Below are positions 1,891 through 30,754 of a stretch of DNA of 31,585 nucleotides, one piece after another. This DNA is from an uncultured Nitrososphaerota archaeon (lineage in GTDB: Archaea > Korarchaeota > Korarchaeia > Korarchaeales > Korarchaeaceae). The stretch is from positions 1-31,585 of the forward strand of contig CAYZRF010000022.1 in NCBI GenBank assembly GCA_964480775.1. The letters run 5' to 3'. Within the stretch, counting starts at the first letter, position 1. Every line of letters starts with the position of its first letter. The notes below the pieces were generated by a model, which saw nothing but the letters and a program-made list of their open reading frames with translations, had not been told where the DNA came from and searched no databases. The position numbers and the translations under genes were made by a program.

Positions 1891-3165
1891 TCATGAGTCA
1901 GATGAGCTCCTTATTTCCTCCAAAATCTCTTTTGCTCTATCTAATCTTATCTTTTTCTCTCTTATCAGCCTCTCAACTATCAGATCTACCTCTTCTGGCT
2001 TAGCGCCAGCAGCCATAGCCACGCTTCTTGCGTGAAGTTTCATGTGCCCAGCCTGTATTCCTTCAGTCGCAAGCGCCCTGATAGCTGCAAAGTTCTGAGC
2101 GAGACCCAAGGACACCATTACCTGGGCGAGTTCGCTTGCAGATCTCACTCCAAGAATCTTAAGACATATTTTCGCTATTGGGTGGACACGGGTTATGCCT
2201 CCCACAGTACCCACAGCCATGGGCATTTCTAGGTAGCCTTCAAGGTCTCCGTTCTCGTTCTTCCACCATCTACTCAAAGAGGTATACCTACCTGCGCGGG
2301 CAGCATATGCGTGTGCGCCAGCTTCAAGAGCCCTCGTGTCTTGTCCCGTTGCCCTAGCCAGAGCAATAACGCCGTTCATTATGCCTTTGTTGTGTGTGCA
2401 TGCTCTATAAGGATCGTTTGCTGCAAAGGCATATGCTGCTACTATCCCGTCGACGACTTCCTCCCCACCAATAGCTTCTTTCTTGAATACAGCTCTTGCC
2501 CTTGCTATCCTTCTATCTGCCAGGTTTGATATTATTCTCAAGTATACTCTTCCTCCGGTAAGCCTCTCTATAGTTGGGGCAACGGCTTCAGCCATTGTAT
2601 TCACTGCATTTGCTCCCATCGCATCTCTAACATCCACAAGAAGATGTGTTATTACCATTGGACCAACTTCTGTATCTAAAATCCTTACTTCGAGATCCCT
2701 TGTCCCTCCACCAAATTTGACTAAAACAGGATCTTGCTCGTTTGCTATCTCCAGAATCTGATCTTTATTTTCTAGTATAATTCTTCTTGCCTCTTCCGGA
2801 TCCTTAACGCCTACAAGTTGAACCTGACCTATCATGATGGGTTCAGTTGTCTCCGCAATGAAACCCCCTCCTGGGAGGGCCATCTTAGCTGCATTGCTCG
2901 CGGCAGCAACTACAGATGGTTCTTCTATTGCCATGGGTATAAGGTAGTCTTTCCCATTGATCTTGAAGTTGACCGCAATCCCTAAAGGCAGAGGCCAGGT
3001 GCCAATCACATTTTCTATAATGCGGTCTGCAACCCCTAACTCCAGGCTTCCCGCTTTAAGGAGCAGCTCAGTTTCCTTATCTGTCAGATCAGCAAATTCT
3101 TTTACTATCCTAACCCTTTCCTCAATGGGTAACTTGTAAAATCCCGGAATTCTTGAGGTCTTCAT
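1891..3165 (-). CDS. hmgA: 3-hydroxy-3-methylglutaryl-CoA reductase (class I, archaeal)
   Basis: Motifs EEPSVVAAASN, DAMGANAVNT, GTVGG and HMKLHAR are typical of the class-I HMGR catalytic domain. I moved the start to ATG 3165 (MKTSRIPGFYKLP...). The 38 upstream codons of the track ORF overlap the 3' end of the epimerase gene, and a TATA-like box lies at 3191-3200. Confidence 0.9.
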   Translation of the reverse strand: MKTSRIPGFYKLPIEERVRIVKEFADLTDKETELLLKAGSLELGVADRIIENVIGTWPLPLGIAVNFKINGKDYLIPMAIEEPSVVAAASNAAKMALPGGGFIAETTEPIMIGQVQLVGVKDPEEARRIILENKDQILEIANEQDPVLVKFGGGTRDLEVRILDTEVGPMVITHLLVDVRDAMGANAVNTMAEAVAPTIERLTGGRVYLRIISNLADRRIARARAVFKKEAIGGEEVVDGIVAAYAFAANDPYRACTHNKGIMNGVIALARATGQDTRALEAGAHAYAARAGRYTSLSRWWKNENGDLEGYLEMPMAVGTVGGITRVHPIAKICLKILGVRSASELAQVMVSLGLAQNFAAIRALATEGIQAGHMKLHARSVAMAAGAKPEEVDLIVERLIREKKIRLDRAKEILEEIRSSSDS

Positions 3166-3190
3166 ATGGTTCTCGAAGGATTTCCAGTTG

Positions 3191-3200
3191 TATATTAAAA
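3191..3200 (-). promoter_or_regulatory. TATA-like box (TTTTAATATA on the minus strand) upstream of hmgA
   Basis: AT-rich box whose centre is about 30 nt upstream of ATG 3165. This fits archaeal TATA spacing for a leaderless or very short-leader mRNA. Confidence 0.35.
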
Positions 3201-3244
3201 GTTGGCAGAGAGTAATACGACGGTATTCAATGGAACGGTTGGGT

Positions 3245-4210
3245 CTAAGCTCCTCTCCTCCTTCCTTTAACATTAACAAACCAATAAAATGTCTCTTTCA
3301 ACCCATCTTCTATTCTAAAGGTTGGAGAGTAGCCCAAAATCTCTCTAGCTAAGCTAATATCAGCAACGCTGTGCATGACTTCTCCCTTCAATAGTGGGAT
3401 GTATTTGAAACCAGCTCTATGACCAACCATCTCGGAGATTTTTTCAGCTAACTCATTTATCGTTATAGCCTTACCAGTCCCAACGTTTAGAACCTTTCCT
3501 ATCGCTTCCTCCTTCAAAGAAGCTAGTAGGTTGGCCCGGGCGACATCCTTAACGAATACGAAGTCCCTGGTCTGCTTACCATCTCCTCTTATTGTTAGAG
3601 GCTGTCCCTGTAAGGCCTGTCTCATGAATATGGAGATCACCCCACTATAATTTCCGCCAGCCTGTCTGGGACCATATACATTGAAATACCTCAAGCAAAC
3701 TGTCTTGAGTCCATAACTTTCGTAAAAAGCCCTGCAGTAAGACTCTGCAGCCAGTTTCGAGGCAGCGTATGGAGAAAGGGGGTCAAGCTCACTTTTCTCA
3801 TTGATTGGAAGAGATGTAGGGTTGCCATAAACAGCACAAGAGGATGCGTAAACGAACCTCTCCACATTGGAGCTTAGTGCGGCCTCCAGCAAGTTTATCG
3901 TCCCGTTAACATTCACATCATTAGTGAGATCTGGTTTTTCTATAGATAAGGGAACCGAAACCACAGCAGCTTGATGAAAAATGAAATCTGCTTCCTTGAC
4001 GAACCTCTTAACGAGCTCCTTGTCCCTAATGTCTCCTTCGATAACTTTTAGCTTGGAGTCTTCGAGAAAGGCCTTCAAGTTATCTAGGCTACCAGTGAAG
4101 AAGTTGTCGATGACTACAACCTGCTCTACTTCCTTTTCACTCAATAAGAGTTCTACTACGTGGCTACCTATAAAGCCAGCCCCCCCAGAAACCAGAACTT
4201 TTCCAAACAT
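3245..4210 (-). CDS. NAD-dependent sugar-nucleotide epimerase/dehydratase (extended SDR; WbpP/GalE/PelX-like UDP-hexose or UDP-HexNAc 4-epimerase)
   Basis: With the start at ATG 4210 the N-terminus is MFGKVLVSGGAGFIGSH (Rossmann GxxGxxG). Also present: catalytic YAASK, SSCAVYG and LRYFNVYGPRQ. The gene begins 11 nt after the stop of the upstream membrane-protein gene, consistent with one operon. Confidence 0.85.
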   Translation of the reverse strand: MFGKVLVSGGAGFIGSHVVELLLSEKEVEQVVVIDNFFTGSLDNLKAFLEDSKLKVIEGDIRDKELVKRFVKEADFIFHQAAVVSVPLSIEKPDLTNDVNVNGTINLLEAALSSNVERFVYASSCAVYGNPTSLPINEKSELDPLSPYAASKLAAESYCRAFYESYGLKTVCLRYFNVYGPRQAGGNYSGVISIFMRQALQGQPLTIRGDGKQTRDFVFVKDVARANLLASLKEEAIGKVLNVGTGKAITINELAEKISEMVGHRAGFKYIPLLKGEVMHSVADISLAREILGYSPTFRIEDGLKETFYWFVNVKGRRRGA

Positions 4211-4221
4211 TAAGGCATCAC

Positions 4222-5766
4222 CTAAAAAGCCGTGTAATAATAATAAGCTATCCTTTTCAAGCTTCTGAGTATTTGAAGGGTAGAGATGGCTCCTGAAACT
4301 AAACATCCAAAAAGATAGCCTAAAGAGACGTAATATATTCCATAGCTATGAGAGAGCAGGAGGCTGAGGATCAGGTTTAGAATCAAGCCCAAGGATAGCG
4401 AATAGATCATGGGCTTTGGTCTATAGAGATAGAAGGATATGAGGGAGTTTATCAGCACAAGTGTAAGAAGAATATTTCCAATTCCAGCTGCTATCAAGAC
4501 TAGGATGGAGTTCTCAGGAATTTTCCAAAGTATTCTCCCTTCTATTGAGAGGAAATAGACCAAGAGTAAAATGAGAATGCCTACTACAGTTAGAGATAGA
4601 ACAACCTTTCTGTAAAAGGACACAAGAAGCTCACCATATTCGGAGCGATCCTTAATCTTAGCCTTACCTCCTTTCTCTATGAGCCTGTATAGCTTAACCA
4701 AGTAATAATGAATGAGTCCAAAAAGAGGAGGAAGTATCAAAAGAGCCAAGTTCTTTCCTGTCTCATAGTCTAAGTCCATTAGGAGAGGATTTCCAACTCT
4801 CGCCCAAACGATGAGCTGATCGACTGTAAGGAGGAGGAAGTAGAGGGTTGAGGCTATGAAGTATGGAATTCCTAGGAGGAGGGTTAGAGAGAGGCTCGGC
4901 AGCCTTACCACAGTCTCTTCGCTCACCGCCTTGAGGAGAGTTAGCCTCATGTATATGTAAACGAAGATATAAATCAGGCTTGCTAGAATTCCAAAGAAAA
5001 TCCCATACATGTGGGCCCTCACGAATTCTAAGGAACTTTCGTATAAGGCAACGTTAACTACGAAAAGAGATAGGATAAAAATTAAGAATAGAGAAATGTA
5101 CTTTTTTAGAGTATAGAGGGGAGCTGTTGCTAACCAGAGCACGGAGAGGGCTGCAAAATAGATCAGCCCTAAGGAAGTCAGATCTTGAGAGAAAGCCCAG
5201 GAGAGAAGGAAATAAAATAAGATACCAGATAAAAGGACAGCAGATGTTCCAATCAGATAGTAAAGGGTTAAAAACTTTAAAGCCACACCGTAAGCCAATT
5301 GGTAGAAGTAAAAGAGAACCTTTCTCATGAAAACTGATTGTATCCCCGAGGTGGTAAGGAGGCTAGCTATAAGAGAAAGACCTATAACAGTAGCGATCCT
5401 TATATCCGCAGTAACTATGGAATAGAGAGAGATCCCAGTTAAGGAAAAGGAGATGGTGGACAGCAGCCATGGTGAGCCTGAAAGCAAGCCCAAGAGAAAG
5501 AGGAGGGCTCCTTCCTTCATTCTCTCAATGAGAGATTTCTTTTCCTCACCCACAGCCTCTTCTCTAGATTTATAGTAATCTATTAGCTCTATAACTGCCT
5601 TGGACAGAGAGAAAACATCTTCAAACCCATAGCTCCTAGCTATCTCTTGGGTAACACCAAGGGACTCGAGTATAGCTGCAACCTGCATGTAATCCTTAAC
5701 GTCAGCTTCTATCTCCAAAACAGCCATGGCCAAACTGTCAAGTTCTGAGAATATTTCTACGGTCAT
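4222..5766 (-). CDS. polytopic membrane protein, PelG-like (putative polysaccharide export/synthase subunit) with an extra N-terminal soluble domain of about 85 aa
   Basis: 514 aa with about 12 or more hydrophobic helices after a soluble N-terminus. The segments SGSPWLLSTISFSL and VDQLIVWARVGNP resemble conserved PelG segments as I remember them. Its ATG overlaps the stop of the PelF-like gene (ATGA at 5763-5766). Confidence 0.55.
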   Translation of the reverse strand: MTVEIFSELDSLAMAVLEIEADVKDYMQVAAILESLGVTQEIARSYGFEDVFSLSKAVIELIDYYKSREEAVGEEKKSLIERMKEGALLFLLGLLSGSPWLLSTISFSLTGISLYSIVTADIRIATVIGLSLIASLLTTSGIQSVFMRKVLFYFYQLAYGVALKFLTLYYLIGTSAVLLSGILFYFLLSWAFSQDLTSLGLIYFAALSVLWLATAPLYTLKKYISLFLIFILSLFVVNVALYESSLEFVRAHMYGIFFGILASLIYIFVYIYMRLTLLKAVSEETVVRLPSLSLTLLLGIPYFIASTLYFLLLTVDQLIVWARVGNPLLMDLDYETGKNLALLILPPLFGLIHYYLVKLYRLIEKGGKAKIKDRSEYGELLVSFYRKVVLSLTVVGILILLLVYFLSIEGRILWKIPENSILVLIAAGIGNILLTLVLINSLISFYLYRPKPMIYSLSLGLILNLILSLLLSHSYGIYYVSLGYLFGCLVSGAISTLQILRSLKRIAYYYYTAF

Positions 5767-7220
5767 TTCGTTACCTCCTCAATCTTCTTTTCAGATAGTA
5801 GCTCTACATATGAGCGCAAGTAGTCCGCCAGAAATCTTTCTTCGGAGTATAACCTTAGAGCCTTCTCTCTTGCCTTCTTACCGAAATCATCTCTCATCTC
5901 ATCGTTGAGAAGGGCTTCTACGATAGCCTTACCAAGTTCTTTTGGCTGTCTAGGAGGAACGACTATGCCGCAGCCTTCTAGAGCTTCTCTAACCCCTCCC
6001 ACGTCAGTAGCTACGACGAGGCGACCGCAGGCCATCGCTTCAACCACAGCGTAAGGAAATCCCTCAGATATACTCGGCAGGGCAACCACATCAGCTCTAT
6101 TGTATTCAATCTCTGGCTGGTTGGTCGGGCCCATAAAGAGAAATGAGTTTTCCAAACCCAGCTCTTTCACCTTTCTGACACAGGCTGCGTAGTATTTCTT
6201 GTCGACTATTGGACCAAAGACTTGGCACACAGCATTCTTAACCTCCTCTCTCACGTGGCTGAAGGCTTCGACCATGTCGATTATCCCTTTGAGCTTGTCA
6301 ACCCTTGCCATGAGGACTATTCTCTTCATATCCCTCTCTTTCTGGATAAGAAGGGGTCTGAACCTGTCTACATCTATTCCGTTGTATATCACTTCTATTT
6401 TTTCTTGCTTAATACCGAACTCCCTCTCCCAGTTTACGTTAAAGCCGCAGACAGGGGAAATTTTGTCAGCATAGCTGTAGTTCGTCAACACTATTGCTCG
6501 AAAGAGATTTAGCCAAAAGATCTTAGCTGGAAAGCTCTCAACTAATCTTACAGTGTCGAGTACCCTCTCCCTAAAGTAGAGACCGTGTTCCGTCAAGAGG
6601 TAAGGGACATCTTCTTCGACCTTAGAGATAACTGCAGGGATCCCACACAGAGCAGCTGCCGAGGAGTGGTACACATCGCCTTCTGGAAACGGGAATATGA
6701 GTACCCTCAAGAAGTGCTGAAGAACCCTTGCAAGGTCTATTAGCTCAGATATCGTCATGTTGGAGTAGAGTTCATCCTCTCCAAGCTTTGATAGGTATGT
6801 TTTCCACAGAGCTTCGCTCTTAAAGGTCTTTTTGTAGTCGTGATCAGCGAAGAAATTTCGCATGTACCTAAGGGCTTCACCCATCCTTCTAGGATTCTTT
6901 CCACCTAGAAGAACCTCTTCAAGGAAATCCTTGAAGTTAGGGATGAACTCCTCTTCCACCTCGCTTGTTCCTGTTCTAATCATCTTTTTCAGAATTGAGA
7001 TGCATGATGGATTGAAGTGCTCACTAGGCTGTTCCTCTCCCCACAGAGAAATAGTTACTAGTCCCTTCACATTCTTAGGTAAATGATAAGAAATCCTAAA
7101 AAAGGGGCTAGGAACTATTGAGACAAGATAAAATTCTATATCTGGAAGCTTTGTGATCAAATTGTGCGTCCAAGTGCTCACCCCGCCCCTAAAATATGGA
7201 TATGTGCCCTCGGTAGTCAT
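5763..7220 (-). CDS. pelF: PelF-like glycosyltransferase (DUF3492-type N-terminal domain + GT4/GT-B catalytic domain)
   Basis: The N-terminus EGTYPYFRGGVSTWTHNLI matches the PelF/DUF3492 signature (EGxYPYxxGGVSxW). The C-terminal half has the GT4 motif LPSISEGFPYAVVEAMACG...TDVGGVRE. Confidence 0.8.
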   Translation of the reverse strand: MTTEGTYPYFRGGVSTWTHNLITKLPDIEFYLVSIVPSPFFRISYHLPKNVKGLVTISLWGEEQPSEHFNPSCISILKKMIRTGTSEVEEEFIPNFKDFLEEVLLGGKNPRRMGEALRYMRNFFADHDYKKTFKSEALWKTYLSKLGEDELYSNMTISELIDLARVLQHFLRVLIFPFPEGDVYHSSAAALCGIPAVISKVEEDVPYLLTEHGLYFRERVLDTVRLVESFPAKIFWLNLFRAIVLTNYSYADKISPVCGFNVNWEREFGIKQEKIEVIYNGIDVDRFRPLLIQKERDMKRIVLMARVDKLKGIIDMVEAFSHVREEVKNAVCQVFGPIVDKKYYAACVRKVKELGLENSFLFMGPTNQPEIEYNRADVVALPSISEGFPYAVVEAMACGRLVVATDVGGVREALEGCGIVVPPRQPKELGKAIVEALLNDEMRDDFGKKAREKALRLYSEERFLADYLRSYVELLSEKKIEEVTK

Positions 7221-7253
7221 TACTACTCTAAGCAGATTAACCCCCCCAAGGCT

Positions 7254-7706
7254 TCACTTCTCTTCTTTCTCCCCTTTTTCTTTTTTCTTATAAGGTCTAA
7301 ACAACGGTACTCCTGCTCCAAGATCATTAGATGGTTCTAATTTATCTTCCATCGAATTTGCCGTTTCTAAGGCCTTTTCAGCCTTCTCAAACTTATTCGC
7401 CCACATGTAGCACTTTGATGCCATTTTATACCCCCAAATTGAAGATCTCGGAGATATAGAAGCTGTAGAATCAGCATATTCCACGTAGGAGTCTCCAGCT
7501 AAATCGAACAATGTTATGGCCGCTTTTTTGTCTCCTGTCTTCAACGCACACTTTGCAGCCGATAAAAGGGAGAGAGCAGCCATTGCAATGTTCTTCTTTT
7601 CTTTCTGGATTTCAGCTTCCTTGAGATAATGCTCAAGAGCCTCCTGATATTTTTCCTCTTTTTCAAGTTTAGTCCCCAAAGACCAGTGGCTTACCTCTGA
7701 CATCAT
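7254..7706 (-). CDS. TPR/SNAP-like helical-repeat protein with a Lys/Glu-rich C-terminal tail
   Basis: Repeated A/Y/L helix-pair pattern (YQEALEHYLKEAE, AALSLLSAAKCALKTGDKKAAITLFDLAGDSYVEYA, ASKCYMWANKFEKAEKALE) and a tail of KKKEKGEKEEK. GGAGGAG lies about 8 nt upstream. This is the first gene of the minus-strand operon. Confidence 0.5.
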   Translation of the reverse strand: MMSEVSHWSLGTKLEKEEKYQEALEHYLKEAEIQKEKKNIAMAALSLLSAAKCALKTGDKKAAITLFDLAGDSYVEYADSTASISPRSSIWGYKMASKCYMWANKFEKAEKALETANSMEDKLEPSNDLGAGVPLFRPYKKKEKGEKEEK

Positions 7707-7794
7707 GCTTGTGTCTCCTCCTTAACAGTAATAATTACTATTTAGAAATAAAGAACACTTATTAAGTCTCCCCTTAATTGAGATTTGAGCCAGA
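7707..7794. promoter_or_regulatory. divergent intergenic promoter region between the Pel-like operon (-) and the KaiC/GTPase/Roadblock operon (+)
   Basis: 88-bp AT-rich spacer with TATA-like CTATTTAGAAATAAAG (ATTT..AAAT inverted arms) and CTTATTAAG. Genes diverge from both ends. Confidence 0.35.
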
Positions 7795-8520
7795 ATGGTC
7801 CAAAAAGGTCATGTTATTGAAAGAGTCAGGACTGGAATAGAAGGTTTCGACGAGCTAATAGAAGGAGGTTTACCCCAAGGAAGGATCTATCTAGTAGCAG
7901 GCGAGACAGGAACATGCAAGACCACTTTTGCCCTTCAATTTCTCTACATGGGAGCTCGTTACTTCGGTGAGAGCGGTATCTTTGTCACCATAGACGAGAA
8001 GCCCGAAAGGATAATAGAGGATGCCGCTTCGATAGGCTGGGACCTAGAGGAGCTTATTGATAAGAACAAACTTCTTATCCTTGAGATATCCCCTTTCTTC
8101 TCAGATATAAAGGAAATAAGTGCCAAACGAATAGCTGAGGAACTAAAGCTTCACATCAACCAGTTAAACGCAAAGAGGCTTGCAATAGATCCAATAGCTC
8201 CTCTTGTCTTAAAAGAGGATGAGGGCGGAGTTACGACTCAGAACATCATAAGGATGTACCTTAAGGAACTCTTCGACTCCTTGGAGGAACTAAAGATTAC
8301 AACCGTTGCCACTTCGGAGATCCCAACCGGAACAAATATGCTGAGCAGGTACGGGGTCGAGGAGTTCTTGGCATCAGGGGTTATTGTACTTCGCTTGATA
8401 AGAGAGGGCACAACATTCTCTAGGGAGTTATATGTAAGGAAAATGAGAGGAGTTAACCACAGCTTGAACGCATATCCTTTCGTGATACAGCGTGGGAGAG
8501 GAATAGTTATATCTATTTGA
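7795..8520 (+). CDS. single-domain KaiC/RecA-superfamily ATPase (KaiC-like, signalling type)
   Basis: RVRTGIEGFDELIEGGLPQGRIYLVAGETGTCKTTFALQF (Walker A with Cys in place of the usual Gly before Lys), VTIDE (catalytic Glu), RLAIDPI (Walker B) and YVRKMRGVNH. About 240 aa, typical of archaeal KaiC-like paralogs. Confidence 0.85.
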   Translation: MVQKGHVIERVRTGIEGFDELIEGGLPQGRIYLVAGETGTCKTTFALQFLYMGARYFGESGIFVTIDEKPERIIEDAASIGWDLEELIDKNKLLILEISPFFSDIKEISAKRIAEELKLHINQLNAKRLAIDPIAPLVLKEDEGGVTTQNIIRMYLKELFDSLEELKITTVATSEIPTGTNMLSRYGVEEFLASGVIVLRLIREGTTFSRELYVRKMRGVNHSLNAYPFVIQRGRGIVISI

Positions 8521-8535
8521 AGGATCTTATCATAG

Positions 8536-9708
8536 ATGAAACGACCGACAGGAATTCCTGTGCTAGATGACATGTTGAGAGGAGGACTTGAAGATGGTTC
8601 TACCACTATTCTCTATCATTCTCCTTTCATAAACGGAGCCTTATTTGCCTATCACATCTGTCACCACAGACTAAAGGTAGGAGATCCTGTCGTCTACTTC
8701 ACCAACACAAAGAGGATACTGGCTATCATAGAGGATGCAGAGAGATTTAGTTGGGATATGAGGAATTATCGCGAGAGGGGGAAGCTTTCCTTCATAGATG
8801 CTTATACTCCTTTTATGGGTCTCTCTGGGGAAGGAAGATATGCTGTTTCAGATCCAACTAGTCCTGAAGAGATAACTGCAGTATTAGCTAAGGCCCTAGA
8901 AGAGCAGGAGAGCGGGTCCCTCCTGGTAATAGACTCCCTATCGACCGCCTTAGATCAATGTGGCTTAAAAATACTTGATAAGCTCGAGGATTGGAGAAGG
9001 CTTGTTACTCTTTATGACGCTTCCCTTCTTTGCATCTTCGCTGATTGGGGATACGAAGCCGAGGTCAGGAGAAGAATTGAGGAATTTTTTGAGAACATGA
9101 TAGAGCTAACTTCGATAGAAAGGAACGTCATAATCGGAGACATTTTCACCGTTAGAAAAGTCGACGGCCAAGTAGTAAGAAGCAAAAGGGTCCCCTTCAA
9201 ACTGATAAAACCAGGAGGGGTGCGCATTTACATTCCAAAGATCCTCGTTACAGGACCTTTTCATGCTGGGAAAACTTCTGTCGTTCACGCTTTATCTACA
9301 AGGGCCGTAAGCGTGGATAGGGAATCAACAACCGTTGCTCTAGACTTTGGACATGTGGAATTTGAGGGATTTTTCGCTGATCTTTTTGGCACCACCGGGC
9401 AGCAACGGTTCGATCCAATACTTGAGCAACTTGGAGGTGAAGCTATTGCCGTGATCCTTGTTGTGGACAGTACCATGCCAGAGACCTTCCCTAGAGCCGT
9501 AGAGATGCTTAAGAAGGCTAGAGCATATGGTCTTCCTTGTATAGTGTTTGCTAACAAACAAGATTTGCCTAATGCTCTAAGCCCTGAAGAGGTCCGAGCG
9601 AAACTAGGATTGGGGGAGGATGTACCTGTTGTAGGAACTGTTGCTACCCAAAAGGAGGGGGTCAGGGAGGGACTAAGAATTCTGTTAGATACGATTTTTA
9701 GAGGGTGA
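8536..9708 (+). CDS. fusion protein: Walker-A-degenerate KaiC-like domain (aa 1-233) + MglA/CvnD-type small GTPase domain (aa ~234-390)
   Basis: The N-terminal part has the KaiC-like scaffold (IPVLDDMLRGGLEDGSTTILY, LLVIDSLSTAL), but HSPFINGA replaces the P-loop. The C-terminal part has G1 GPFHAGKT (9253-9276), G2 TTVALDFG, G3 LFGTTGQQRF, G4 NKQD and a G5-like TVATQ. It starts 15 nt after the preceding gene. Confidence 0.85.
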   Translation: MKRPTGIPVLDDMLRGGLEDGSTTILYHSPFINGALFAYHICHHRLKVGDPVVYFTNTKRILAIIEDAERFSWDMRNYRERGKLSFIDAYTPFMGLSGEGRYAVSDPTSPEEITAVLAKALEEQESGSLLVIDSLSTALDQCGLKILDKLEDWRRLVTLYDASLLCIFADWGYEAEVRRRIEEFFENMIELTSIERNVIIGDIFTVRKVDGQVVRSKRVPFKLIKPGGVRIYIPKILVTGPFHAGKTSVVHALSTRAVSVDRESTTVALDFGHVEFEGFFADLFGTTGQQRFDPILEQLGGEAIAVILVVDSTMPETFPRAVEMLKKARAYGLPCIVFANKQDLPNALSPEEVRAKLGLGEDVPVVGTVATQKEGVREGLRILLDTIFRG

Positions 9709-9712
9709 TCTT

Positions 9713-10093
9713 GTGGAAGAAAAAATAACCCTTAGGGATATGTTAAAAAAGGTTCTTTTGGACCTGAACTCTACTGGAGAGGTTTATGCATCTGCTATTG
9801 TGTCGAGAAATGGGCTTCTTATGGCTTGTGAAATGCCTAGTGATGTAGACTCGAGAACATTTGCAGCCATGACTGCTACGATGGTTGGAGCGGCAGAAAC
9901 TGCTTTCTCGGAACTAAAGAAAGGAGTGGCAGAGAGAGTTATAGTAGAGGGGCAAGAGGCCAAGATCATAGCAATGGGGGCTGGAAAAAAGGCTCTCTTA
10001 GTCACTATGTCTGATCCTAGAGCAAATCTTGGATTAATACTCCTTGAAATGGAGAAGGCTAGCGAAAAAATAAAGAAACTCTTGGGAAGGTGA
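9713..10093 (+). CDS. Roadblock/LC7 (MglB-like) domain protein
   Basis: 126 aa with the Robl/LC7 pattern (VYASAIVSRNGLLMACEMPSDVDSRTFAAMTATMVGAAE...ALLVTMSDPRANLGLI). The GTG start lies 4 nt after the GTPase-fusion stop. Confidence 0.85.
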   Translation: MEEKITLRDMLKKVLLDLNSTGEVYASAIVSRNGLLMACEMPSDVDSRTFAAMTATMVGAAETAFSELKKGVAERVIVEGQEAKIIAMGAGKKALLVTMSDPRANLGLILLEMEKASEKIKKLLGR

Positions 10094-10152
10094 TGTAACT
10101 GATTAGCTTCTCCAGCCTACTGGATTTTCTTATAATAATCCTATCTCTGATA

Positions 10153-10158
10153 TTTTTT
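10153..10158 (+). terminator. oligo-T tract (T6), a possible archaeal terminator of the KaiC/GTPase/Roadblock operon
   Basis: TTTTTT lies 60 nt downstream of the Roadblock stop codon. A second T4 follows at 10164-10167. Confidence 0.35.
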
Positions 10159-10171
10159 CGAGCTTTTGTTT

Positions 10172-10423
10172 ATGCTAAAAGTATCAATTAACGAGAAAAG
10201 GTTTAGAGCAGCAACAAGTTACATATTTCTTAGCTATGGGCCGTTTAGAACCGCTTTTATTCTATTAGTACTAAACGGGATGGTTTCTTTCTTTTCTAAA
10301 CTTCTCATCTCTTTTGGAATGGAAGAACACAGTTTGTTGGGAATTGTGGTGTGTTATGCGCTTCTCGTGTTAAGTTTGATGCTTATGCTCACGGTACTTT
10401 TTGGGAGAACCAGAAAGGAATAG
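10172..10423 (+). CDS. possible small membrane protein (2 TM)
   Basis: ATG at 10172 (the track uses TTG at 10166). Two hydrophobic stretches (FRTAFILLVLNGMVSFF, LLGIVVCYALLVLSLMLMLTVLF). It lies directly after an oligo-T tract, has no obvious promoter and matches no family, so the call is weak. Confidence 0.3.
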   Translation: MLKVSINEKRFRAATSYIFLSYGPFRTAFILLVLNGMVSFFSKLLISFGMEEHSLLGIVVCYALLVLSLMLMLTVLFGRTRKE

Positions 10424-10445
10424 AATAAGGGAATTGACTACAAGA

Positions 10446-11153
10446 CTAGTCGATCTTATATCTAAACCAGTTAGTAGTAAGAGAACTTCCTCTCCTCGCT
10501 AGATATCTAACGTAATCTTCTCCACCCTCCTTTTTCATCTCAAGCACTCCATCAACCAATGTCATTAGGATGTGCTCTACCTCCTGTGGGTGAGTCTCCT
10601 TATCAAATAGGAAAAGACCGTTGCTTTGACTTGCTCGCAATCTTCCAAAAAGAGCGTGTAGAAACCTAGAGACTGTTTCAGGTTTGTTGTAAGTGAATAA
10701 GCTCGTTAACGTATCGAATACAAACCTAACTGGCCTATGTCTCATCCAAAACTCCTTTAGAAGGTCCCTCACTATGACGTTATATCCGGATAGATCCATT
10801 ATGCTAGAAGCCCTTTTGATGTACGGGATCTCCTCTGTCTCCAGACCAACTGTTTTGGAATACATGTCAATGAATACAATCCGCTCTTCCTTTTTCGCTT
10901 CCTCTATCCTCATGTTAAGTTCAGAAAACTCTCTTTCCTGCTCCTCCGCCGTTCTATCAGTTGTGGTGAATATACAAGCATCACCTTCAAGTATTCCAAC
11001 GTGTGTAAACTTTTTAGAGAAAATCTCCTTGCTAGAGATTGGAGGACCCAAGAGTAGAACGTTAATTCCTCTTGGCAGGCCCCCTCCTATCGCCTCATCA
11101 AGAACAGGAAATCCTATTGGCACCTTACTGTTCTGCCTTAATTCTTCTACCAC
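10446..11153 (-). CDS. KaiC-like domain protein with a degenerate Walker A (probable pseudo-ATPase)
   Basis: PIGFPVLDEAIGGGLPRGINVLLLGPPISSKEIF has the KaiC-like N-terminal signature, but GPPISSKE (11025-11048) replaces GxxGxGKT. FVFDTLTSL is Walker-B-like. GTG start. Confidence 0.75.
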   Translation of the reverse strand: MVEELRQNSKVPIGFPVLDEAIGGGLPRGINVLLLGPPISSKEIFSKKFTHVGILEGDACIFTTTDRTAEEQEREFSELNMRIEEAKKEERIVFIDMYSKTVGLETEEIPYIKRASSIMDLSGYNVIVRDLLKEFWMRHRPVRFVFDTLTSLFTYNKPETVSRFLHALFGRLRASQSNGLFLFDKETHPQEVEHILMTLVDGVLEMKKEGGEDYVRYLARRGSSLTTNWFRYKID

Positions 11154-11247
11154 AACAATCCAAGGTTCTTAAAAATTAAAAAATGCATTCGTTTAGCCTT
11201 TCTCTTGGAGCAAATGGTTTTCCTCATTTTTACATGGAATCCTCAAG
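11154..11247. promoter_or_regulatory. divergent intergenic promoter region (pseudo-KaiC gene on -, second PelF-like gene on +)
   Basis: 94-bp spacer containing TTAAAAATTAAAAAA and TCATTTTTACA, which are AT-rich TATA-like elements. Genes diverge from both ends. Confidence 0.3.
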
Positions 11248-12696
11248 GTGTATTGTTTGAAGCCAAAAATCGTACTTATCGAGGAAGGAGGCTTCCCTGT
11301 TGACATCGGAGGGATCTCCACATGGGTTAGAGAGCTAATTGAAGGGTTAAAGGAATTTGAATTCACCATATTGACTATAACAACTCATGAGAAATCTGAT
11401 CTCATATTGCAAGTTCCTGAAGGAATTAAAGTAAGGATTCACATTTTGTTTAGCAGAAGATGGAAACATAAAGCCCATCCCGATACCTTTAAGGGTGTAA
11501 TAGACTGCCTTAAATTGTTCCTTTCTGGAGAGAGAGTGGGGATAGAAGAAATCGTTGAGTTAATGGCCAACTTGGATCCAATAAAGGTATTATGCTCTAG
11601 AGAATTCTGGGAAATGGCTAAAGAAGCTTACGAGGAGCTAAATCTCTACCAAGAGAGTTTTATAGGCTTCGCATACGAACTTGCATGTATATTTCGTCCT
11701 CTACTTGAAGTTCTCTTGCTAGGAACCGACCTGAAGGGGTTTGACATAGTTCACTCCACCAATGCGGGACTGGCGGGGCTGGCAGGGGCAGCTGCAAAAG
11801 TTAAGTGGGGTTATCCGTTAGTTCTGACAGAGCATGGCTCTTTCCTAAGAGAATTTGACATATGGCTGGAAAGGACGAGGAGAAAAAGGTGGTCAAGGGA
11901 ATTGCTCAAAAGAGTTATGAACTCGGTAGTAAGAACCAGCCATTCTTATGCTAATTCCATAGTCTCAGTCTCGGAGTCCATAAGAAAAGATCAACTAAAG
12001 ATAGGTGCCTCGGAAGAAAAGCTTCTTGTGATAAGGAACGGAGTAGATGCTTCAAAATTTGAGAGAGCTATCACTAATATAGATGTCGGTGCCGACGTCA
12101 GTGTTATGAATAGGAAAATAGGAAAAGATTATGGAGAAGTTCTCAGAGTTGTTACAGTATCGAGAGTGGACAAAGTGAAAGGTATAGATTTACTGGCGAG
12201 GGCTGCGGCTTTTGCGCTAAGTTCTGGGGTGAGATTAGTCTTCGAGGTGGTCGGGCCTATAACCGATAAGGAGTATTTGGAGGAAATTCAAGCTCTGACC
12301 AAAAGCCTAGGAATATCAAGAAATTTCAAGATAATTGGGGTAAGAGACGTTAAGAACGTGTTGGACAGGGCTGACATTTTCGTCCTTCCCAGTAGGTCGG
12401 AAGGAAGTCCCTTTGCCCTTTTGGAGGCTATGGCAGCAAGCCTTCCGATTATTGGAACCGGTGTAGGAGGAATTCCTGAGGTGTTGGGAGATGCTGGGAT
12501 CCTTGTTAAACCCGAACCCAAGGAACTCGCTTCAGTCATAGAAAAACTCGCAAAAGACGCTGAACTCAGGAGAAAGCTTGGAAAAGCAGCTAGAGAGAGG
12601 GTGATATCCAATTTCCCACTTGAGAAGATGATTGATGGTTATAGGAACCTTTACTTAAAGCTCATGGAGGAAAAACCATGGTATTCTTCGGTTTAG
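11248..12696 (+). CDS. second PelF-like glycosyltransferase (DUF3492-type N-terminus + GT4 domain)
   Basis: N-terminus IEEGGFPVDIGGISTWVRELIEGL. GT4 motif LPSRSEGSPFALLEAMAASLPIIGTGVGGIPE. GTG start at 11248, with TTG at 11257 as an alternative. Confidence 0.8.
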   Translation: MYCLKPKIVLIEEGGFPVDIGGISTWVRELIEGLKEFEFTILTITTHEKSDLILQVPEGIKVRIHILFSRRWKHKAHPDTFKGVIDCLKLFLSGERVGIEEIVELMANLDPIKVLCSREFWEMAKEAYEELNLYQESFIGFAYELACIFRPLLEVLLLGTDLKGFDIVHSTNAGLAGLAGAAAKVKWGYPLVLTEHGSFLREFDIWLERTRRKRWSRELLKRVMNSVVRTSHSYANSIVSVSESIRKDQLKIGASEEKLLVIRNGVDASKFERAITNIDVGADVSVMNRKIGKDYGEVLRVVTVSRVDKVKGIDLLARAAAFALSSGVRLVFEVVGPITDKEYLEEIQALTKSLGISRNFKIIGVRDVKNVLDRADIFVLPSRSEGSPFALLEAMAASLPIIGTGVGGIPEVLGDAGILVKPEPKELASVIEKLAKDAELRRKLGKAARERVISNFPLEKMIDGYRNLYLKLMEEKPWYSSV

Positions 12697-13301
12697 GAAT
12701 AGGAGAGGTCTTCTCTATAAGGAGAAAGAGAGGGTGGAAAAGCGGGCTGTACTTGCTTTTCGCCATTCTTCACTTAACTTCTTTTTTCTTCTTAGGAAAG
12801 ACCATAGAGGTAACCTCCAAGATTATCTTATCTATTGCCCTCACCTTAACTGGAATTTTGCTTTCGTCTTTTATAATAATTAGAAAGAAGCTAACTCGCC
12901 TCATTAAAGCTGGACTTAAGGAAATTGATTCTGTTGAAAGGGAGTTTAGCAGGACCTTGGTTGCTCTTGACATAGTTTCCATCGTTGCGTCCTTTCTCGT
13001 AGTAATGGTTCTGTATGGGAGAAAACTTGAAGTTTTCCTGTCGTTGAATATTCTACTACTCGTTTCTTCATTAAGTCGCATGTCATTACTTGTCCTCATA
13101 GGTTCTAAATGGCTACCCGTTCTTCCAACGGCCTTAGCAATTGAGGTGCTCTTTGGAGCAATGTCGCATAGTTTCTGGTCAATCCTAAGCTACATGACAA
13201 CTTCTACATTGATTCTAACTCTATCCATCTGGAGAACCTCTTCGTTCTCGAGAGAACCTGCATATCTCATCTTTAGATCGATGGTGGAAGAGAATTTCTA
13301 A
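12678..13301 (+). CDS. hypothetical membrane protein (about 6 TM), translationally coupled to the second PelF-like gene
   Basis: ATG 12678 overlaps the upstream gene by 19 nt. There are multiple hydrophobic helices (LYLLFAILHLTSFFFL, IILSIALTLTGILLSSFIII, LDIVSIVASFLVVMVLY, LLVSSLSRMSLLVLIG, and others). No family recognised. Confidence 0.55.
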   Translation: MVFFGLGIGEVFSIRRKRGWKSGLYLLFAILHLTSFFFLGKTIEVTSKIILSIALTLTGILLSSFIIIRKKLTRLIKAGLKEIDSVEREFSRTLVALDIVSIVASFLVVMVLYGRKLEVFLSLNILLLVSSLSRMSLLVLIGSKWLPVLPTALAIEVLFGAMSHSFWSILSYMTTSTLILTLSIWRTSSFSREPAYLIFRSMVEENF

Positions 13302-27755: not shown

Positions 27756-28421
27756 CTAATTTTTCTTCTTCCTAAGCTTAGGAATAAACTTACCAACCCT
27801 CTCTTGATATCTTAGGTAATCATCTCCAAACCTCTCAATAAGCATTTTTTCTTCTTCCTTCACCATGTGAACATAGCCTGGGATAGCCAACAATGGAATA
27901 GCTGCCAAGAAGTTTAGTTGAAGTAGAAAAAGACCACAGAACATGAGAAAATAGCTAAGATATGAGGGGTGTCTTACTATTCCGTAAGGACCCCATGTAA
28001 CAAGCACGTGATCTTCAGACATCTCCCAAGAAACTGAATATCGTCCTCGAGATAAAACGCTCCAACTAAATAAGAAGAATCCAAACACAAGTAGGCCAAG
28101 CCCTATCCACCTCAGAAACTGATTGTAGGGAAGGTTTATCCGTAATGATGAAAATTTAGCTTCAGAAAATAAACCTGTAAGAACGAGTAAAGGATACAGA
28201 AGGACCTCTATCCAGAAGACTATGGTTCCGAATGCCGCAAGCATAAAGACTGGATATTCTGGTGGTCTGCTTACTTCCCCCTTGCGATACCTTCTATCTG
28301 ATCTATGTCTGTGATGAATCAGGATATTCAGCACATTCAATGTGAAAAAGCAAATAAGACAAGCAATTAGGACAAATGCAGAAAAAACATCAAAAGACAT
28401 ACAAATATGGATTACTAACAT
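27756..28421 (-). CDS. isoprenylcysteine carboxyl methyltransferase (ICMT)/phospholipid methyltransferase-family membrane protein
   Basis: Multi-TM protein with GPYGIVRHPSYLSYFLMFCG and EEKMLIERFGDDYLRYQERV, the ICMT-family C-terminal signature. Confidence 0.75.
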   Translation of the reverse strand: MLVIHICMSFDVFSAFVLIACLICFFTLNVLNILIHHRHRSDRRYRKGEVSRPPEYPVFMLAAFGTIVFWIEVLLYPLLVLTGLFSEAKFSSLRINLPYNQFLRWIGLGLLVFGFFLFSWSVLSRGRYSVSWEMSEDHVLVTWGPYGIVRHPSYLSYFLMFCGLFLLQLNFLAAIPLLAIPGYVHMVKEEEKMLIERFGDDYLRYQERVGKFIPKLRKKKN

Positions 28422-28534: not shown

Positions 28535-30754
28535 ATGCTTAATCGTTCTATTGTCGGAGCTGTAGTATTGCTTGTGTTAGCGACATCAGCTATATTATTT
28601 CTGAGAAATCCCTTTGTTAGAGAGCCTGATTCAGTTGAACCAGTTCCTCTCATGATGAAGAACCCAAAAGACTTTATTACTAAATTTTTTTCAACGGAAC
28701 GCATTAAGGTTCATCCTAGCATCCCAGAGTATGATTTACCACTTAGCCCGAAGGATATTTCAAACTTTGATCAGGTTACGAAGGTATTTCCTTTCAACTC
28801 TATTTCCAGAGAGAAGCTCCTGAAAAACGGGTTTTTGGTGGTAAATTGGCATGGAAATGACGTTATATTTGCATATAAATCCCTTAGTGAAAGCGGAATA
28901 CCAATATATGTGACCAGCGATTCTATGCTCCACCTGTATCATGTCCAGTTTGATCATTTATTAAGCGAAATAGAGGAAAACAGCCTATTTCCAATGCTTA
29001 CAGAACTAACAGAGGTCTTATTGAGGGAAAGCCAGAGGCAATACGACAATCTTGATGGTTCTCTGAAGGAAGCCGCGAGAAGAAATGTCGCGTACTTCTC
29101 AGTTGCCATGAAATTACTGGATGAATCTTACATACCACCGTCTTATGTTTCCAAAGAAGTTTCTGAGGAAATTAACCTGATAAAAGGACATCAGGGTTTC
29201 TTTAAGAGCCCGATATTTGGTTATGAGGAAGATTACAGCCAATACGTTCCTAGGGGACATTATACAAAGTCAGAAATCCTGAAAAAATACTTCAAGGCGA
29301 TGATGTGGTACGGCAGAATGGCCTTCTTAATAAAAGGAGGCAGGATAATTCCAGAGGAAGAAGCTAGAAGGTTGACTATTCAAGCTTCTCTGATCGTTGC
29401 AGCAATGCAGGTTGCTAAGAAAGAAAATATAAGTGGATCGGAAATATGGAGCGAAATTTACGCTGTCACTTCATTTTTCGTTGGATTTGTCGATGATCTC
29501 ACACCATATGAATATCTCCAAGCAATTAAGGAGGTTTTTGGCACTGAATTTGCGCCAATAAACCTTTCTGAAACAGTAATGTTGGACGAGCTTAGGAGAA
29601 AGCTACTTGAAATGAGAACTCCGTTAATCTTTTCTGGGACTGGAAACTGCTATGCTATGGAGCTCTCTCCCGAAGAGCTTGAGGAGTGTCTTAAGGAGAG
29701 CATGGGAATGAGGTTTATGGGTCAGCGCTTTGTTCCAGACTCTTACGTTTTTCAAAAGCTTGTTGCTCCTTCTGTTGGATCCTTTACAGGAGAAGGAAGC
29801 CCGTTTACTCTTGGTTACACTCCTTTGGGACCTACAAGGGTTTTCCCAAGGGGGCTGGATTTCATGGCCGTTCTCGGATCAGAAGAGGCTCTAAAGATCC
29901 TTCAAGGAGAGGGGGATGTGGATTACGAAAGATATATGGAAAATCTTGAGGAGCTGAGGGAGGAGTTCTCAGGTCTTAATGGGAGTGAATGGGGCAAGAA
30001 TCTCTACTGGGCTTGGATCTACACCTTGAAAGCCTTAATTGAGCCCAGAGGTGAGGGTTATCCCTCATACATGAGGACTCAGGCCTGGGAAAGAAGACAG
30101 TTGCACGCCGCCCTTGCCTCTTGGGCAGAACTTAGGCATGACACAATACTTTATACCAAGCAAAGCTACACTCCTCTTTTAACTTCTGCCCCAGTGCCCA
30201 TTCCAAATGTTACGGCGTACATTGAGCCAGTTCCTGAAGTTTACAACAGACTATCAAGCCTTGTTGAAATGACAAGAACTGGTCTAAAAGAGCTTGGATT
30301 CTTAAATCAAACCCAAGAAAAAGCGTTACTCCAGCTAAAGTACGTCTTAGATATGTCGATGGAGATATCAAAGAAGGAACTGGAAATGAAACAATTAAGC
30401 TCTGATGAAGTGATCTTCCTTGAGCAGTTTCCTGATATGCTAGAAATGATTGTAGAAGGTTTAGATGAAAGGAGCAAGAGTACAGTTCTAGTTGCAGATG
30501 TTCATACGGATCAAAACTCAAAGCTCGTTCTTGAGGAAGGCGTAGGAAACCTTGACTTGATTTTCGTCGTGGTTCCAACAGCAGAGGGATATCTCTTTGT
30601 GGCAGCTGGCCCATCCCTATCCTACTATGAGTTTAAGCAACCAATGGCTAATCGACTAACAGATGAGACTTGGAAGCAGATGCTAGAGATAAAACCTCCA
30701 AGCAGACCTAAGTGGATTTCCAGCTTCTTCGAATCCAGTCCTTTTGGCAGTTGA
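28535..30754 (+). CDS. large secreted or membrane-anchored protein, DUF3160-like
   Basis: N-terminal signal/anchor (IVGAVVLLVLATSAILFL). The length (739 aa) and the segment DYSQYVPRGHYTKSEILKKYFKAMMWYGRMAF match my recollection of the DUF3160 family. Confidence 0.6.
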   Translation: MLNRSIVGAVVLLVLATSAILFLRNPFVREPDSVEPVPLMMKNPKDFITKFFSTERIKVHPSIPEYDLPLSPKDISNFDQVTKVFPFNSISREKLLKNGFLVVNWHGNDVIFAYKSLSESGIPIYVTSDSMLHLYHVQFDHLLSEIEENSLFPMLTELTEVLLRESQRQYDNLDGSLKEAARRNVAYFSVAMKLLDESYIPPSYVSKEVSEEINLIKGHQGFFKSPIFGYEEDYSQYVPRGHYTKSEILKKYFKAMMWYGRMAFLIKGGRIIPEEEARRLTIQASLIVAAMQVAKKENISGSEIWSEIYAVTSFFVGFVDDLTPYEYLQAIKEVFGTEFAPINLSETVMLDELRRKLLEMRTPLIFSGTGNCYAMELSPEELEECLKESMGMRFMGQRFVPDSYVFQKLVAPSVGSFTGEGSPFTLGYTPLGPTRVFPRGLDFMAVLGSEEALKILQGEGDVDYERYMENLEELREEFSGLNGSEWGKNLYWAWIYTLKALIEPRGEGYPSYMRTQAWERRQLHAALASWAELRHDTILYTKQSYTPLLTSAPVPIPNVTAYIEPVPEVYNRLSSLVEMTRTGLKELGFLNQTQEKALLQLKYVLDMSMEISKKELEMKQLSSDEVIFLEQFPDMLEMIVEGLDERSKSTVLVADVHTDQNSKLVLEEGVGNLDLIFVVVPTAEGYLFVAAGPSLSYYEFKQPMANRLTDETWKQMLEIKPPSRPKWISSFFESSPFGS

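Follow-up and report, generated by a model that had tools for sequence, protein, structure and literature searches.

A Pel-like exopolysaccharide locus of uncultured archaea with a KaiC–GTPase–Roadblock cassette that may stand in for PelD

What controls a Pel-type exopolysaccharide synthase in an archaeon whose locus holds no PelD? Few biofilm polysaccharides have been studied as well as Pel, whose activation through PelD and cyclic dimeric guanosine monophosphate (c-di-GMP) is the textbook case of post-translational synthase control; how PelD-divergent systems such as the streptococcal one are controlled is an open question in the Pel field. In bacteria, PelD, PelE, PelF and PelG form a membrane complex that c-di-GMP-bound PelD activates post-translationally (PMC7112168, PMC12345266), and streptococci, which are without c-di-GMP, still retain a PelD with transmembrane (TM) and GAF parts (PMC12345266). 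Here we analyzed a stretch of 31,585 nucleotides (the window; contig CAYZRF010000022.1) from an uncultured hydrothermal-sediment archaeon of the TACK group, about 10 kb of which encode PelF-like and PelG-like proteins beside a cassette of KaiC-like, GTPase and Roadblock proteins. The reading that we favor, with a probability of roughly 0.6, is that an archaeal Pel-type synthase was acquired horizontally and rewired to this nucleoside triphosphatase (NTPase) cassette, which replaces PelD and c-di-GMP.

An initial annotation of this DNA had divided the locus into four units set apart by two divergent spacers. Our map of open reading frames (ORFs) reproduced its coordinates and strands exactly and gave the same four units (Table 1). 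Two related contigs were used for comparison: L097, a near-identical contig of 83 kb, and L001, which is 89% related and comes from an independent assembly. In gene orders, FUS denotes the KaiC-like::GTPase fusion, ROBL the Roadblock protein, psKaiC the stand-alone degenerate KaiC, EPI the epimerase and TM207 a 207-aa membrane protein.

Both glycosyltransferases (GTs) that had been likened to PelF exceeded the 100-bit cut-off of the NCBIfam PelF equivalog model (NF038011). Profile searches gave 153.6 bits for PelF1 and 167.2 bits for PelF2, and the EX7E motif was intact in both (EGFPYAVVE and EGSPFALLE, respectively). Along its full length, PelF1 shared about 40% identity with the annotated PelF of Acidobacteria, cyanobacteria and Paenibacillus, and the archaeal PelF1 clade is small. 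PelF2 was about 28–30% identical to PelF1 and to bacterial PelF; in neighbor-joining trees built on BLOSUM distances, without support values, it grouped with PelF2 of locus L023 and PelF of the distant locus L034 as a deep lineage apart from PelF1 and bacterial PelF. The PelG-like assignment also stood, with a match to Pfam PF16933 that scored 36.7 bits (gathering score 29) over nearly the full length (profile positions 29–452 of 452), about 12 hydrophobic segments, and an ORF that overlaps pelF by 4 nt. The NCBIfam scan gave no PelG match for this ORF; in a search of the PDB, PelF matched generic GT4 proteins only and PelG nothing, with no solved Pel complex to compare.

The epimerase, predicted to belong to the short-chain dehydrogenase/reductase (SDR) family, was recovered by its Pfam profile (Table 1). 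It probably starts at nt 4210, which gives 321 aa and matches the gene call in L097. Its nearest solved structures are UDP-GlcNAc/GalNAc 4-epimerases, namely 6DNT, WbgU, WbpP and 6WJ9/6WJB, the last of which we take to be PelX. UDP-GalNAc is the Pel precursor (PMC12345266), and the likeness to these C4-epimerases fits a role in its supply. The epimerase gene also follows PelG in L023 and in a further locus, L093.

The next-closest PelF group to archaeal PelF1, at about 42%, came from two loci (L091 9486–15942 and L092 4670–11471) that are probably bacterial, judged from neighbors encoding a cold-shock domain protein and an FXD-type DAHP synthase. In both, genes for a TPR protein, PelF and a PelG-like protein are followed by those for an Agd3-type deacetylase (CBM87 plus a carbohydrate esterase domain) and a GH114 hydrolase, and neither the cassette nor PelD is present. 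GH114 is the endo-alpha-1,4-polygalactosaminidase family, of which Ega3 cleaves both galactosaminogalactan and Pel. Resembling a Pel/galactosaminogalactan hybrid toolkit, like the fungal Agd3 and Ega3, these two loci form the nearest outgroup to archaeal PelF1. They share with the archaeal loci a domain of about 85 aa at the PelG N-terminus, cytoplasmic and ahead of the Pfam match, which is conserved across the archaeal clade (DSLA..VLE.D..VKDY...A.ILE..GVT...A...G..D.F.LAK) and missing from the L034 PelG-like protein. We considered this domain as a KaiC-specific docking site and rejected the idea because it occurs in the KaiC-less L091 and L092 as well.

The PelF1–PelG–TPR core finds its nearest likeness in bacterial systems and probably came from bacteria. 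Whether its product is Pel bears on another account, in which the DUF3492-GT4 and PelG-like proteins make a different glycoconjugate, such as an envelope glycan or a glycolipid; this would fit any regulatory reading. It draws on the finding of no PelA-type de-N-acetylase or Agd3-type deacetylase in the window, on the low identity of PelF2 and L034 PelF to true PelF, and on archaeal envelopes being unlike bacterial ones. We hold it to be unlikely, since PelF1 lies above the equivalog cut-off with its full-length identity to annotated PelF, PelG belongs to a Pel-specific family, the operon includes a UDP-GlcNAc/GalNAc-4-epimerase-like gene, and sister loci carry galactosaminoglycan-specific GH114 and Agd3-type genes. 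A Pel product, a partially deacetylated alpha-1,4-GalNAc polymer, thus has indirect support from the 4-epimerase-like gene of the operon and from the GH114 and Agd3 genes of sister loci.

The small protein annotated as TPR-like matched the TPR_2, SNAP and TPR_12 profiles (SNAP 28.2 bits against a gathering score of 25) and had no TM segment. Its AlphaFold2 (AF2) model consisted of six helices arranged as three hairpins, with a predicted local distance difference test score (pLDDT) of 87 to about 98, and Foldseek matched this model to generic TPR and SNAP proteins with E-values of about 3e-3. The gene was always found upstream of PelF1. Since the family is also present at the KaiC-less L091 and L092, it belongs to the Pel side of the locus. 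A relation to PelE found no support: a profile search retrieved only about 40 unnamed proteins of 145–190 aa with no named PelE among them, alignment by hhalign to the TPR segments attached to bacterial PelF was not significant, and neither these searches nor Foldseek could demonstrate homology, leaving the position next to PelF as the only likeness. Its C-terminal tail is disordered and basic and carries a P-L-F motif at residues ~133–136. This motif was invariant in all KaiC-linked lineages and absent from the L091 and L092 homologues, and its confinement to the KaiC-linked clade makes it a candidate that may serve as a short linear docking motif.

Domain scans of the window ORFs bore out the reported absence of a GAF/GGDEF PelD-like gene and of PelA, PelB and PelC. 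None of these domains occurred in the 10 kb past the left edge of the window either, as read on L097, where a PelD-like receptor just outside the locus might have lain. The related loci gave no match to GAF or GGDEF, and an Rfam scan of the window found no family, c-di-GMP riboswitches included. An archaeon with a single membrane would not be expected to have PelB or PelC, both of which belong to the outer membrane. Among the Pel-linked archaeal loci, a GH114 hydrolase was found in L093 only.

On the other side of the first spacer, Pfam profile searches confirmed the KaiC-like ATPase, the pseudo-KaiC::GTPase fusion and the Roadblock protein. The KaiC has its DE and hhhhD motifs and is likely the catalytic core of the switch. 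In an alignment of 40 diverse fusion homologues, the GTPase domain had invariant GxxxxGK[ST], G2 ‘GTT’, G3 ‘FGT[TIVP]GQ’ and NKxD motifs, the stretch GTTVALDFGH was invariant, and Walker A was absent from the N-terminal KaiC-like domain of every aligned member. The AF2 model of the fusion had two domains (pLDDT 86.9), the first of which superposed on the archaeal single-domain KaiC-like proteins PH0284 and SSO2452 with a target TM-score of about 0.85. The fold search with the whole fusion was dominated by KaiC matches, and the GTPase half was assessed by sequence; its nearest PDB proteins were Arf/Arl. MglA Groups 2–5 have G2 ‘TT’ and G3 GTPGQ in common and are paired with MglB (Wuichet and Sogaard-Andersen 2014, PMC4316618). 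By its motifs (G2 ‘TT’, G3 ‘GTxGQ’), the fused GTPase is of this type, with the Roadblock protein as its MglB-like partner, and the Roadblock gene adjoined the fusion gene in nearly all of the approximately 80 family loci. The fourth conserved member of the cassette is psKaiC, present in nearly all family loci and inverted in the window compared to most of them. It is a KaiC family protein with a degenerate Walker A, as had been annotated: the motif reads GPPISSKE in the window and GPPxxGK[KR] in orthologues, the family retaining GPPxxGK and having lost the following Ser/Thr.

To what extent the two halves belong together was read from their linkage in relatives. A scan of genome contigs with the fusion protein as query returned one true relative, L001. 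A scan of metagenome contigs with fusion homologues gave the best 80 loci, those most similar to the query, so that the proportions below are not family-wide. ORFs of the 80+ loci were classified by phmmer and by hidden Markov models (HMMs) built from locus proteins, and fusion clusters were dereplicated at 85% fusion identity. Loci L095 and L096 end within the TPR gene and were excluded as uninformative, and the GT4 genes 7 kb from the cassette in L085, generic and without DUF3492, were not counted as linkage. KaiC, FUS, ROBL and psKaiC lay beside TPR, PelF and PelG in seven of the seven informative archaeal PelF1 lineages (window/L001/L097, L004/5/10, L007/8/87–90, L014, L012/17, L023 and L093/94), between which protein identity was only 33–60%. 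Counted from the fusion, a PelF-type GT adjoined it in 8 of the 26–29 informative dereplicated clusters. The co-occurrence of GTs and cassette above chance and their synteny in relatives, both raised by the annotation as questions, are thus borne out, with every informative archaeal PelF1-clade locus syntenic and three gene orders among them. The linked contigs are labeled Korarchaeota/Thermoproteota and Bathyarchaeia/Hecatellales at NCBI, and they are archaeal, for they carry genes such as Rpb7, Spt4, RPB9/TFIIS, L13e and F420 ligase.

In the window and most loci (architecture A), PelG←PelF←TPR diverges from KaiC→FUS→ROBL→psKaiC. In L023 (architecture B), the order is FUS→ROBL→ ←KaiC and, divergent from KaiC, TPR→PelF1→PelG→EPI→PelF2. 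In L034 (architecture C), which belongs to a distant fusion clade, psKaiC→FUS→ROBL→PelF2-like→PelG lie on a single strand with gaps of ~75 and 107 nt between ROBL, PelF and PelG; its PelF scored 137.7 bits for DUF3492 and its PelG-like protein 39.3 bits for PF16933 (gathering score 29), and there was no TPR gene. Because the PelF tree separates the PelF2-like proteins from PelF1, the cassette is linked to two lineages of DUF3492-GTs. The block also diverges together: between L007 and L014 all seven proteins were 59–78% identical. In L023, KaiC, TPR, PelF and PelG were closest to those of L017 (73%, 58%, 66% and 53% identity, respectively), whereas FUS and ROBL were the most divergent of the set and fell in another clade of the fusion tree. 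A foreign GTPase–Roadblock pair has therefore displaced the original, with adjacency retained.

Chance or plain hitch-hiking, in which a single accident in an ancestor was passed down vertically and links nothing functionally, might be argued from the fact that most Pel-linked loci have architecture A, sit in one fusion clade and co-diverge. We consider it very unlikely, and hardly worth crediting, in view of the three gene orders, the two PelF lineages, the xenologous FUS–ROBL replacement, the occurrence in the distant clade of L034, the linkage of all seven PelF1 lineages at such low identity, and the operon of L093. The latter (1941–6212 on the Hecatellales-labeled contig Ga0180302_10001821) reads KaiC–FUS–V4R–ROBL–protoglobin–GH114, all co-oriented; by this order a GH114 hydrolase and two sensor domains are co-transcribed with the switch, which points to a small molecule or gas as the sensed input, with hydrolysis of the polymer in the same unit.

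The favored reading suggests a chain of events that would run as follows. The KaiC ATPase and the two pseudo-KaiC domains would form a hetero-oligomer, whose nucleotide or phosphorylation state, together with a Roadblock dimer acting as GTPase-activating protein (GAP) or guanine nucleotide exchange factor (GEF), would determine whether the fused GTPase is bound to GTP or GDP. In its active state the GTPase would bring PelF from the cytoplasm to PelG at the membrane or activate it there, perhaps by way of the TPR adaptor, and the cassette would do the job of c-di-GMP-bound PelD in bacteria. Sensors would provide the input in the variant loci: L093 has V4R and protoglobin, and cassettes without Pel have PAS. 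Overall, the cassette probably acts as an on-off switch of the Pel genes. The more specific proposal, a c-di-GMP-independent, nucleotide-driven post-translational switch that docks on PelF–PelG via the PLF tail of the TPR protein, is tentative, and we place it somewhat short of even odds.

Several observations weigh against this reading. Physical gating of the synthase, the protein contacts and the direction of control are what we infer from gene context, and the divergent transcription of the gene sets in architecture A equally fits mere co-regulation. The Walker A of KaiC (residues ~36–43) is GETGTCKT in the window and L001, with Cys replacing the last Gly before Lys, whereas the other Pel-linked orthologues have a canonical GE[TA]G[TA]GKT; psKaiC is also more decayed in the window/L001 lineage than in other lineages. 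Given both features, ATPase activity of the window copy appears uncertain from its sequence. The cassette is moreover a widespread, generic archaeal module that is not Pel-specific: its psKaiC–FUS–ROBL core is near-universal in the fusion family, which ranges over Bathyarchaeia, Methanosarcinales/ANME-2, Methanoperedens and Altiarchaeales, and most cassettes are without Pel neighbors (L006, L011, L013 and at least 18 other clusters), L013 and L011 encoding close relatives of the Pel-linked KaiC. The census itself is biased in that it covers the 80 closest loci, metagenomes of hydrothermal or marine sediment supply nearly all of its Pel-linked loci, and its independent count on the PelF side is one of PelF1 lineages.

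The generic nature of the cassette and the divergent transcription in architecture A lend weight to an account in which the cassette runs another process, such as polarity, adhesion, surface-structure placement or stress, and Pel is kept near it by a shared lifestyle programme and the divergent promoter region. MglA/MglB and the KaiC-like ArlH control such processes elsewhere, archaeal type IV pili loci have KaiC-like ATPases and Roadblock proteins (PMC4858521), and the cassette, mostly without Pel, lies beside sensors: among 150 immediate neighbors of non-Pel cassettes the recurrent families were V4R (8), PAS (5), rhomboid (4) and TPR (3), with no recurrent glycosyltransferase family. We judge this account unlikely. 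In L034, PelF and PelG are co-oriented directly downstream of ROBL at the short gaps given above; the GH114 hydrolase lies within the cassette operon of L093; the GTPase–Roadblock pair of L023 stayed adjacent although replaced; and beside Pel-linked cassettes no genes for pili, the archaellum or another effector are recurrent.

Among the non-Pel cassettes, the one in L006 (5659–17688) lies behind a 791-aa multi-PAS sensor and beside the polyphosphate genes PPK, PPX/GppA and CHAD, which may represent a different output of the same cassette.

The spacers bear on a further account, in which the cassette senses a signal, sets transcription of the divergent pel operons through a DNA-binding partner and leaves synthase activity alone. 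Every clade-1 locus keeps the KaiC<>TPR divergent junction, as do L023 and L093. The divergent spacers are short and AT-rich, and the first contains an imperfect palindrome at window positions 7721–7745 (CTTAACAGTAAT-A-ATTACTATTTAG), which is partly retained in L001 and unconserved in other lineages; in L034, the second gene upstream of the cassette is of the ArsR-type helix-turn-helix (HTH) kind. A conserved operator in this spacer was ruled out, as no sequence motif is common across lineages, and with no DNA-binding domain in any cassette protein and no regulator gene conserved in the Pel-linked loci, we regard transcriptional control of this kind as quite improbable. The arrangement of the second spacer, between psKaiC and PelF2, is identical in L001 and L097.

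Returning to the proposal that the cassette replaces PelD, its parts can be set against known systems. Compared to bacterial Pel (pelABCDEFG in P. aeruginosa, pelDEA_DAFG in B. cereus), the locus has the same PelF–PelG order and a TPR protein in front, as pelE precedes pelF, and outer-membrane parts are likewise dispensable in a single-membrane cell (PMC7112168). It also shares a GalE/PelX-type epimerase as accessory and, in the L093 variant, a nearby glycoside hydrolase. It differs in having no PelD at all, not even the streptococcal TM+GAF core (PMC12345266), in the missing PelA-type deacetylase, in the second PelF paralogue and in its archaeal host. Furthermore, bacterial PelE is a membrane-anchored TPR protein with two TM segments, whereas the archaeal TPR protein, at 150 aa, is soluble and has no detectable homology to it. 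The L091 and L092 loci have the same small TPR family and PelG N-terminal domain, but differ in their polymer-modifying enzymes, in their TPR proteins without the PLF tail motif and in being free of the cassette.

On the signaling side, MglA/MglB systems (polarity in Myxococcus; archaeal Group 4) have the same G2 ‘TT’ and G3 ‘GTxGQ’ without the canonical Asp and the same adjacent Roadblock/MglB gene. Here, in contrast, the GTPase departs from the single-domain proteins of the MglA family in being joined to a KaiC-like domain that has no P-loop; two further KaiC-family proteins accompany it, and its proposed output is a polysaccharide synthase in place of motility or polarity. Group 4 MglA proteins are archaeal and paired with MglB/Roadblock, and no conserved neighbors were reported for them in the 2014 survey (PMC4316618). 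The actinobacterial conservon (CvnA histidine kinase, CvnB Roadblock, CvnC and CvnD MglA-like GTPase) also joins a sensor or ATP-using part to a Roadblock protein and a GTPase of the MglA family (PMC4316618), but it is an analogy only, since the locus has no histidine kinase, KaiC ATPases being in its place, and no CvnC-like gene, and the domain of life and the output are others. Unlike the cyanobacterial KaiABC clock, all three proteins here have a single KaiC-like domain, and no KaiB/thioredoxin-like gene occurs at the locus. Makarova, Galperin and Koonin reportedly described archaeal KaiC-like ATPases as signaling hubs in 2017 (mBio), and the cassette itself may already be catalogued there. 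With such hubs, including ArlH/FlaH of the archaellum and the KaiC linked to type IV pili (PMC4858521), the locus has in common single-domain KaiC-like ATPases that are accompanied by inactivated homologues and whose genes neighbor surface machinery and inputs that vary (PAS, V4R). None of the accessible sources connected a KaiC hub with PelF/PelG or with an exopolysaccharide synthase of any kind.

The annotation had been aware of no earlier description of a coupling between Pel and a KaiC–GTPase module, and full-text literature searches likewise found neither an archaeal Pel locus nor such a coupling; systematic surveys of pel operons cover bacteria alone, and the word ‘archaea’ is absent from PMC7112168. 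The components all come from known families; the novelty lies in the combination of a Pel-type synthase with a KaiC/MglA/Roadblock cassette in the place of PelD, and in the host domain. If the docking switch proves true, a Pel system would be known in an archaeon for the first time, the widespread but uncharacterized archaeal modules of KaiC-like and Group 4 MglA proteins would gain their first defined molecular output, and a bacterial biofilm machine, gained horizontally, would be seen under native archaeal control logic. To our knowledge, the outputs of many archaeal KaiC-like ATPases and MglA/Roadblock pairs are almost entirely unknown. For one archaeal NTPase cassette, the locus offers an output that biochemistry can address, namely the making of a polymer by PelF/PelG, and it gives a natural example of a regulator swap following inter-domain gene transfer. 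It also indicates a capability for a Pel-like matrix in hydrothermal-sediment archaea labeled Bathyarchaeia and Korarchaeota, which bears on the aggregation or attachment of these archaea, abundant in sediments.

Table 1. Features of the Pel-like locus and its cassette (window positions)
Feature	Position	Strand	Evidence
SDR nucleotide-sugar C4-epimerase, PelX/GalE-like accessory	3245..4306	-	Pfam Epimerase 231 bits
PelG-like polytopic membrane protein, predicted polysaccharide translocase	4222..5766	-	PF16933 36.7 bits
PelF1, cytoplasmic GT4 with N-terminal DUF3492, predicted polymerase	5763..7220	-	DUF3492 153.8 bits and Glycos_transf_1
Small soluble three-repeat TPR/SNAP-like adaptor in PelE position, 150 aa	7254..7706	-	TPR_2, SNAP, TPR_12
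88-nt AT-rich divergent spacer, TPR–PelF–PelG–epimerase operon versus KaiC operon	7707..7794	.	ORF map
Single-domain KaiC-family RecA-like ATPase	7795..8520	+	PF06745 226.5 bits
Fusion, 390 aa: N-terminal KaiC-like pseudo-ATPase and C-terminal MglA-type GTPase	8536..9708	+	Pfam KaiC 73.6, Arf 57.8 bits
Roadblock/LC7 (MglB-like) protein, predicted GAP/GEF partner of the fused GTPase	9713..10093	+	PF03259 54.1 bits
Small membrane protein with two TM segments, 85-aa ORF	10166..10423	+	Two hydrophobic segments; gene call in L097
Stand-alone degenerate KaiC-like protein, DUF7504 type	10446..11153	-	PF06745 82.9, DUF7504 43.5 bits
94-nt divergent spacer, degenerate KaiC gene versus PelF2	11154..11247	.	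ORF map
PelF2, second DUF3492-GT4	11248..12696	+	DUF3492 137 bits; NCBIfam PelF 167.2 bits
TM207, 207-aa polytopic membrane protein	12678..13301	+	Five or six hydrophobic segments

Each PelF paralogue of the window is divergent from a KaiC-family gene. PelF2 is followed by TM207, which overlaps it by 19 nt, suggesting translational coupling of the two. The annotation had described TM207 as a protein with six TM segments, and five or six hydrophobic segments were found; it had no Pfam match, and its identity to the counterpart in L001 was only about 45%. As a shortened PelG or an analogue of the TM part of PelD, TM207 gained no support: hhalign against PelG gave a probability of 9.5% over two helices, and the protein is unconserved beyond the window, L001 and L097.

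The 85-aa TM protein, listed as possible in the annotation, proved to be a real gene. Compared to L001, its ORF is in-frame without indels, and in its most conserved stretch (RFRAATSYIFLSYG) eight of the eight nucleotide differences are synonymous and at third positions. The probable start is the ATG at 10172, giving 83 aa. The ORF was found in the window/L001/L097 lineage only, with an independent gene call in L097.

The locus is flanked by housekeeping genes (HMG-CoA reductase, carbamoyltransferase, Fe-S assembly, LeuRS-type synthetase and TruD), and no tRNA gene was detected in the window. Far downstream are genes for an ICMT/PEMT-type membrane methyltransferase (27756–28421, minus strand) and a DUF3160 protein of 739 aa (683 bits; 28535–30754, plus strand), which, as far as can be seen, have no visible relation to the Pel locus. 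Near the left edge, three successive plus-strand ORFs in three frames (53–559, 643–1194 and 1209–1517) correspond to one 445-aa radical-SAM gene in L097 (11600–12937). As this gene is intact in L097, the split indicates two frameshifts in the window copy, which is either a pseudogene or the result of assembly indels.

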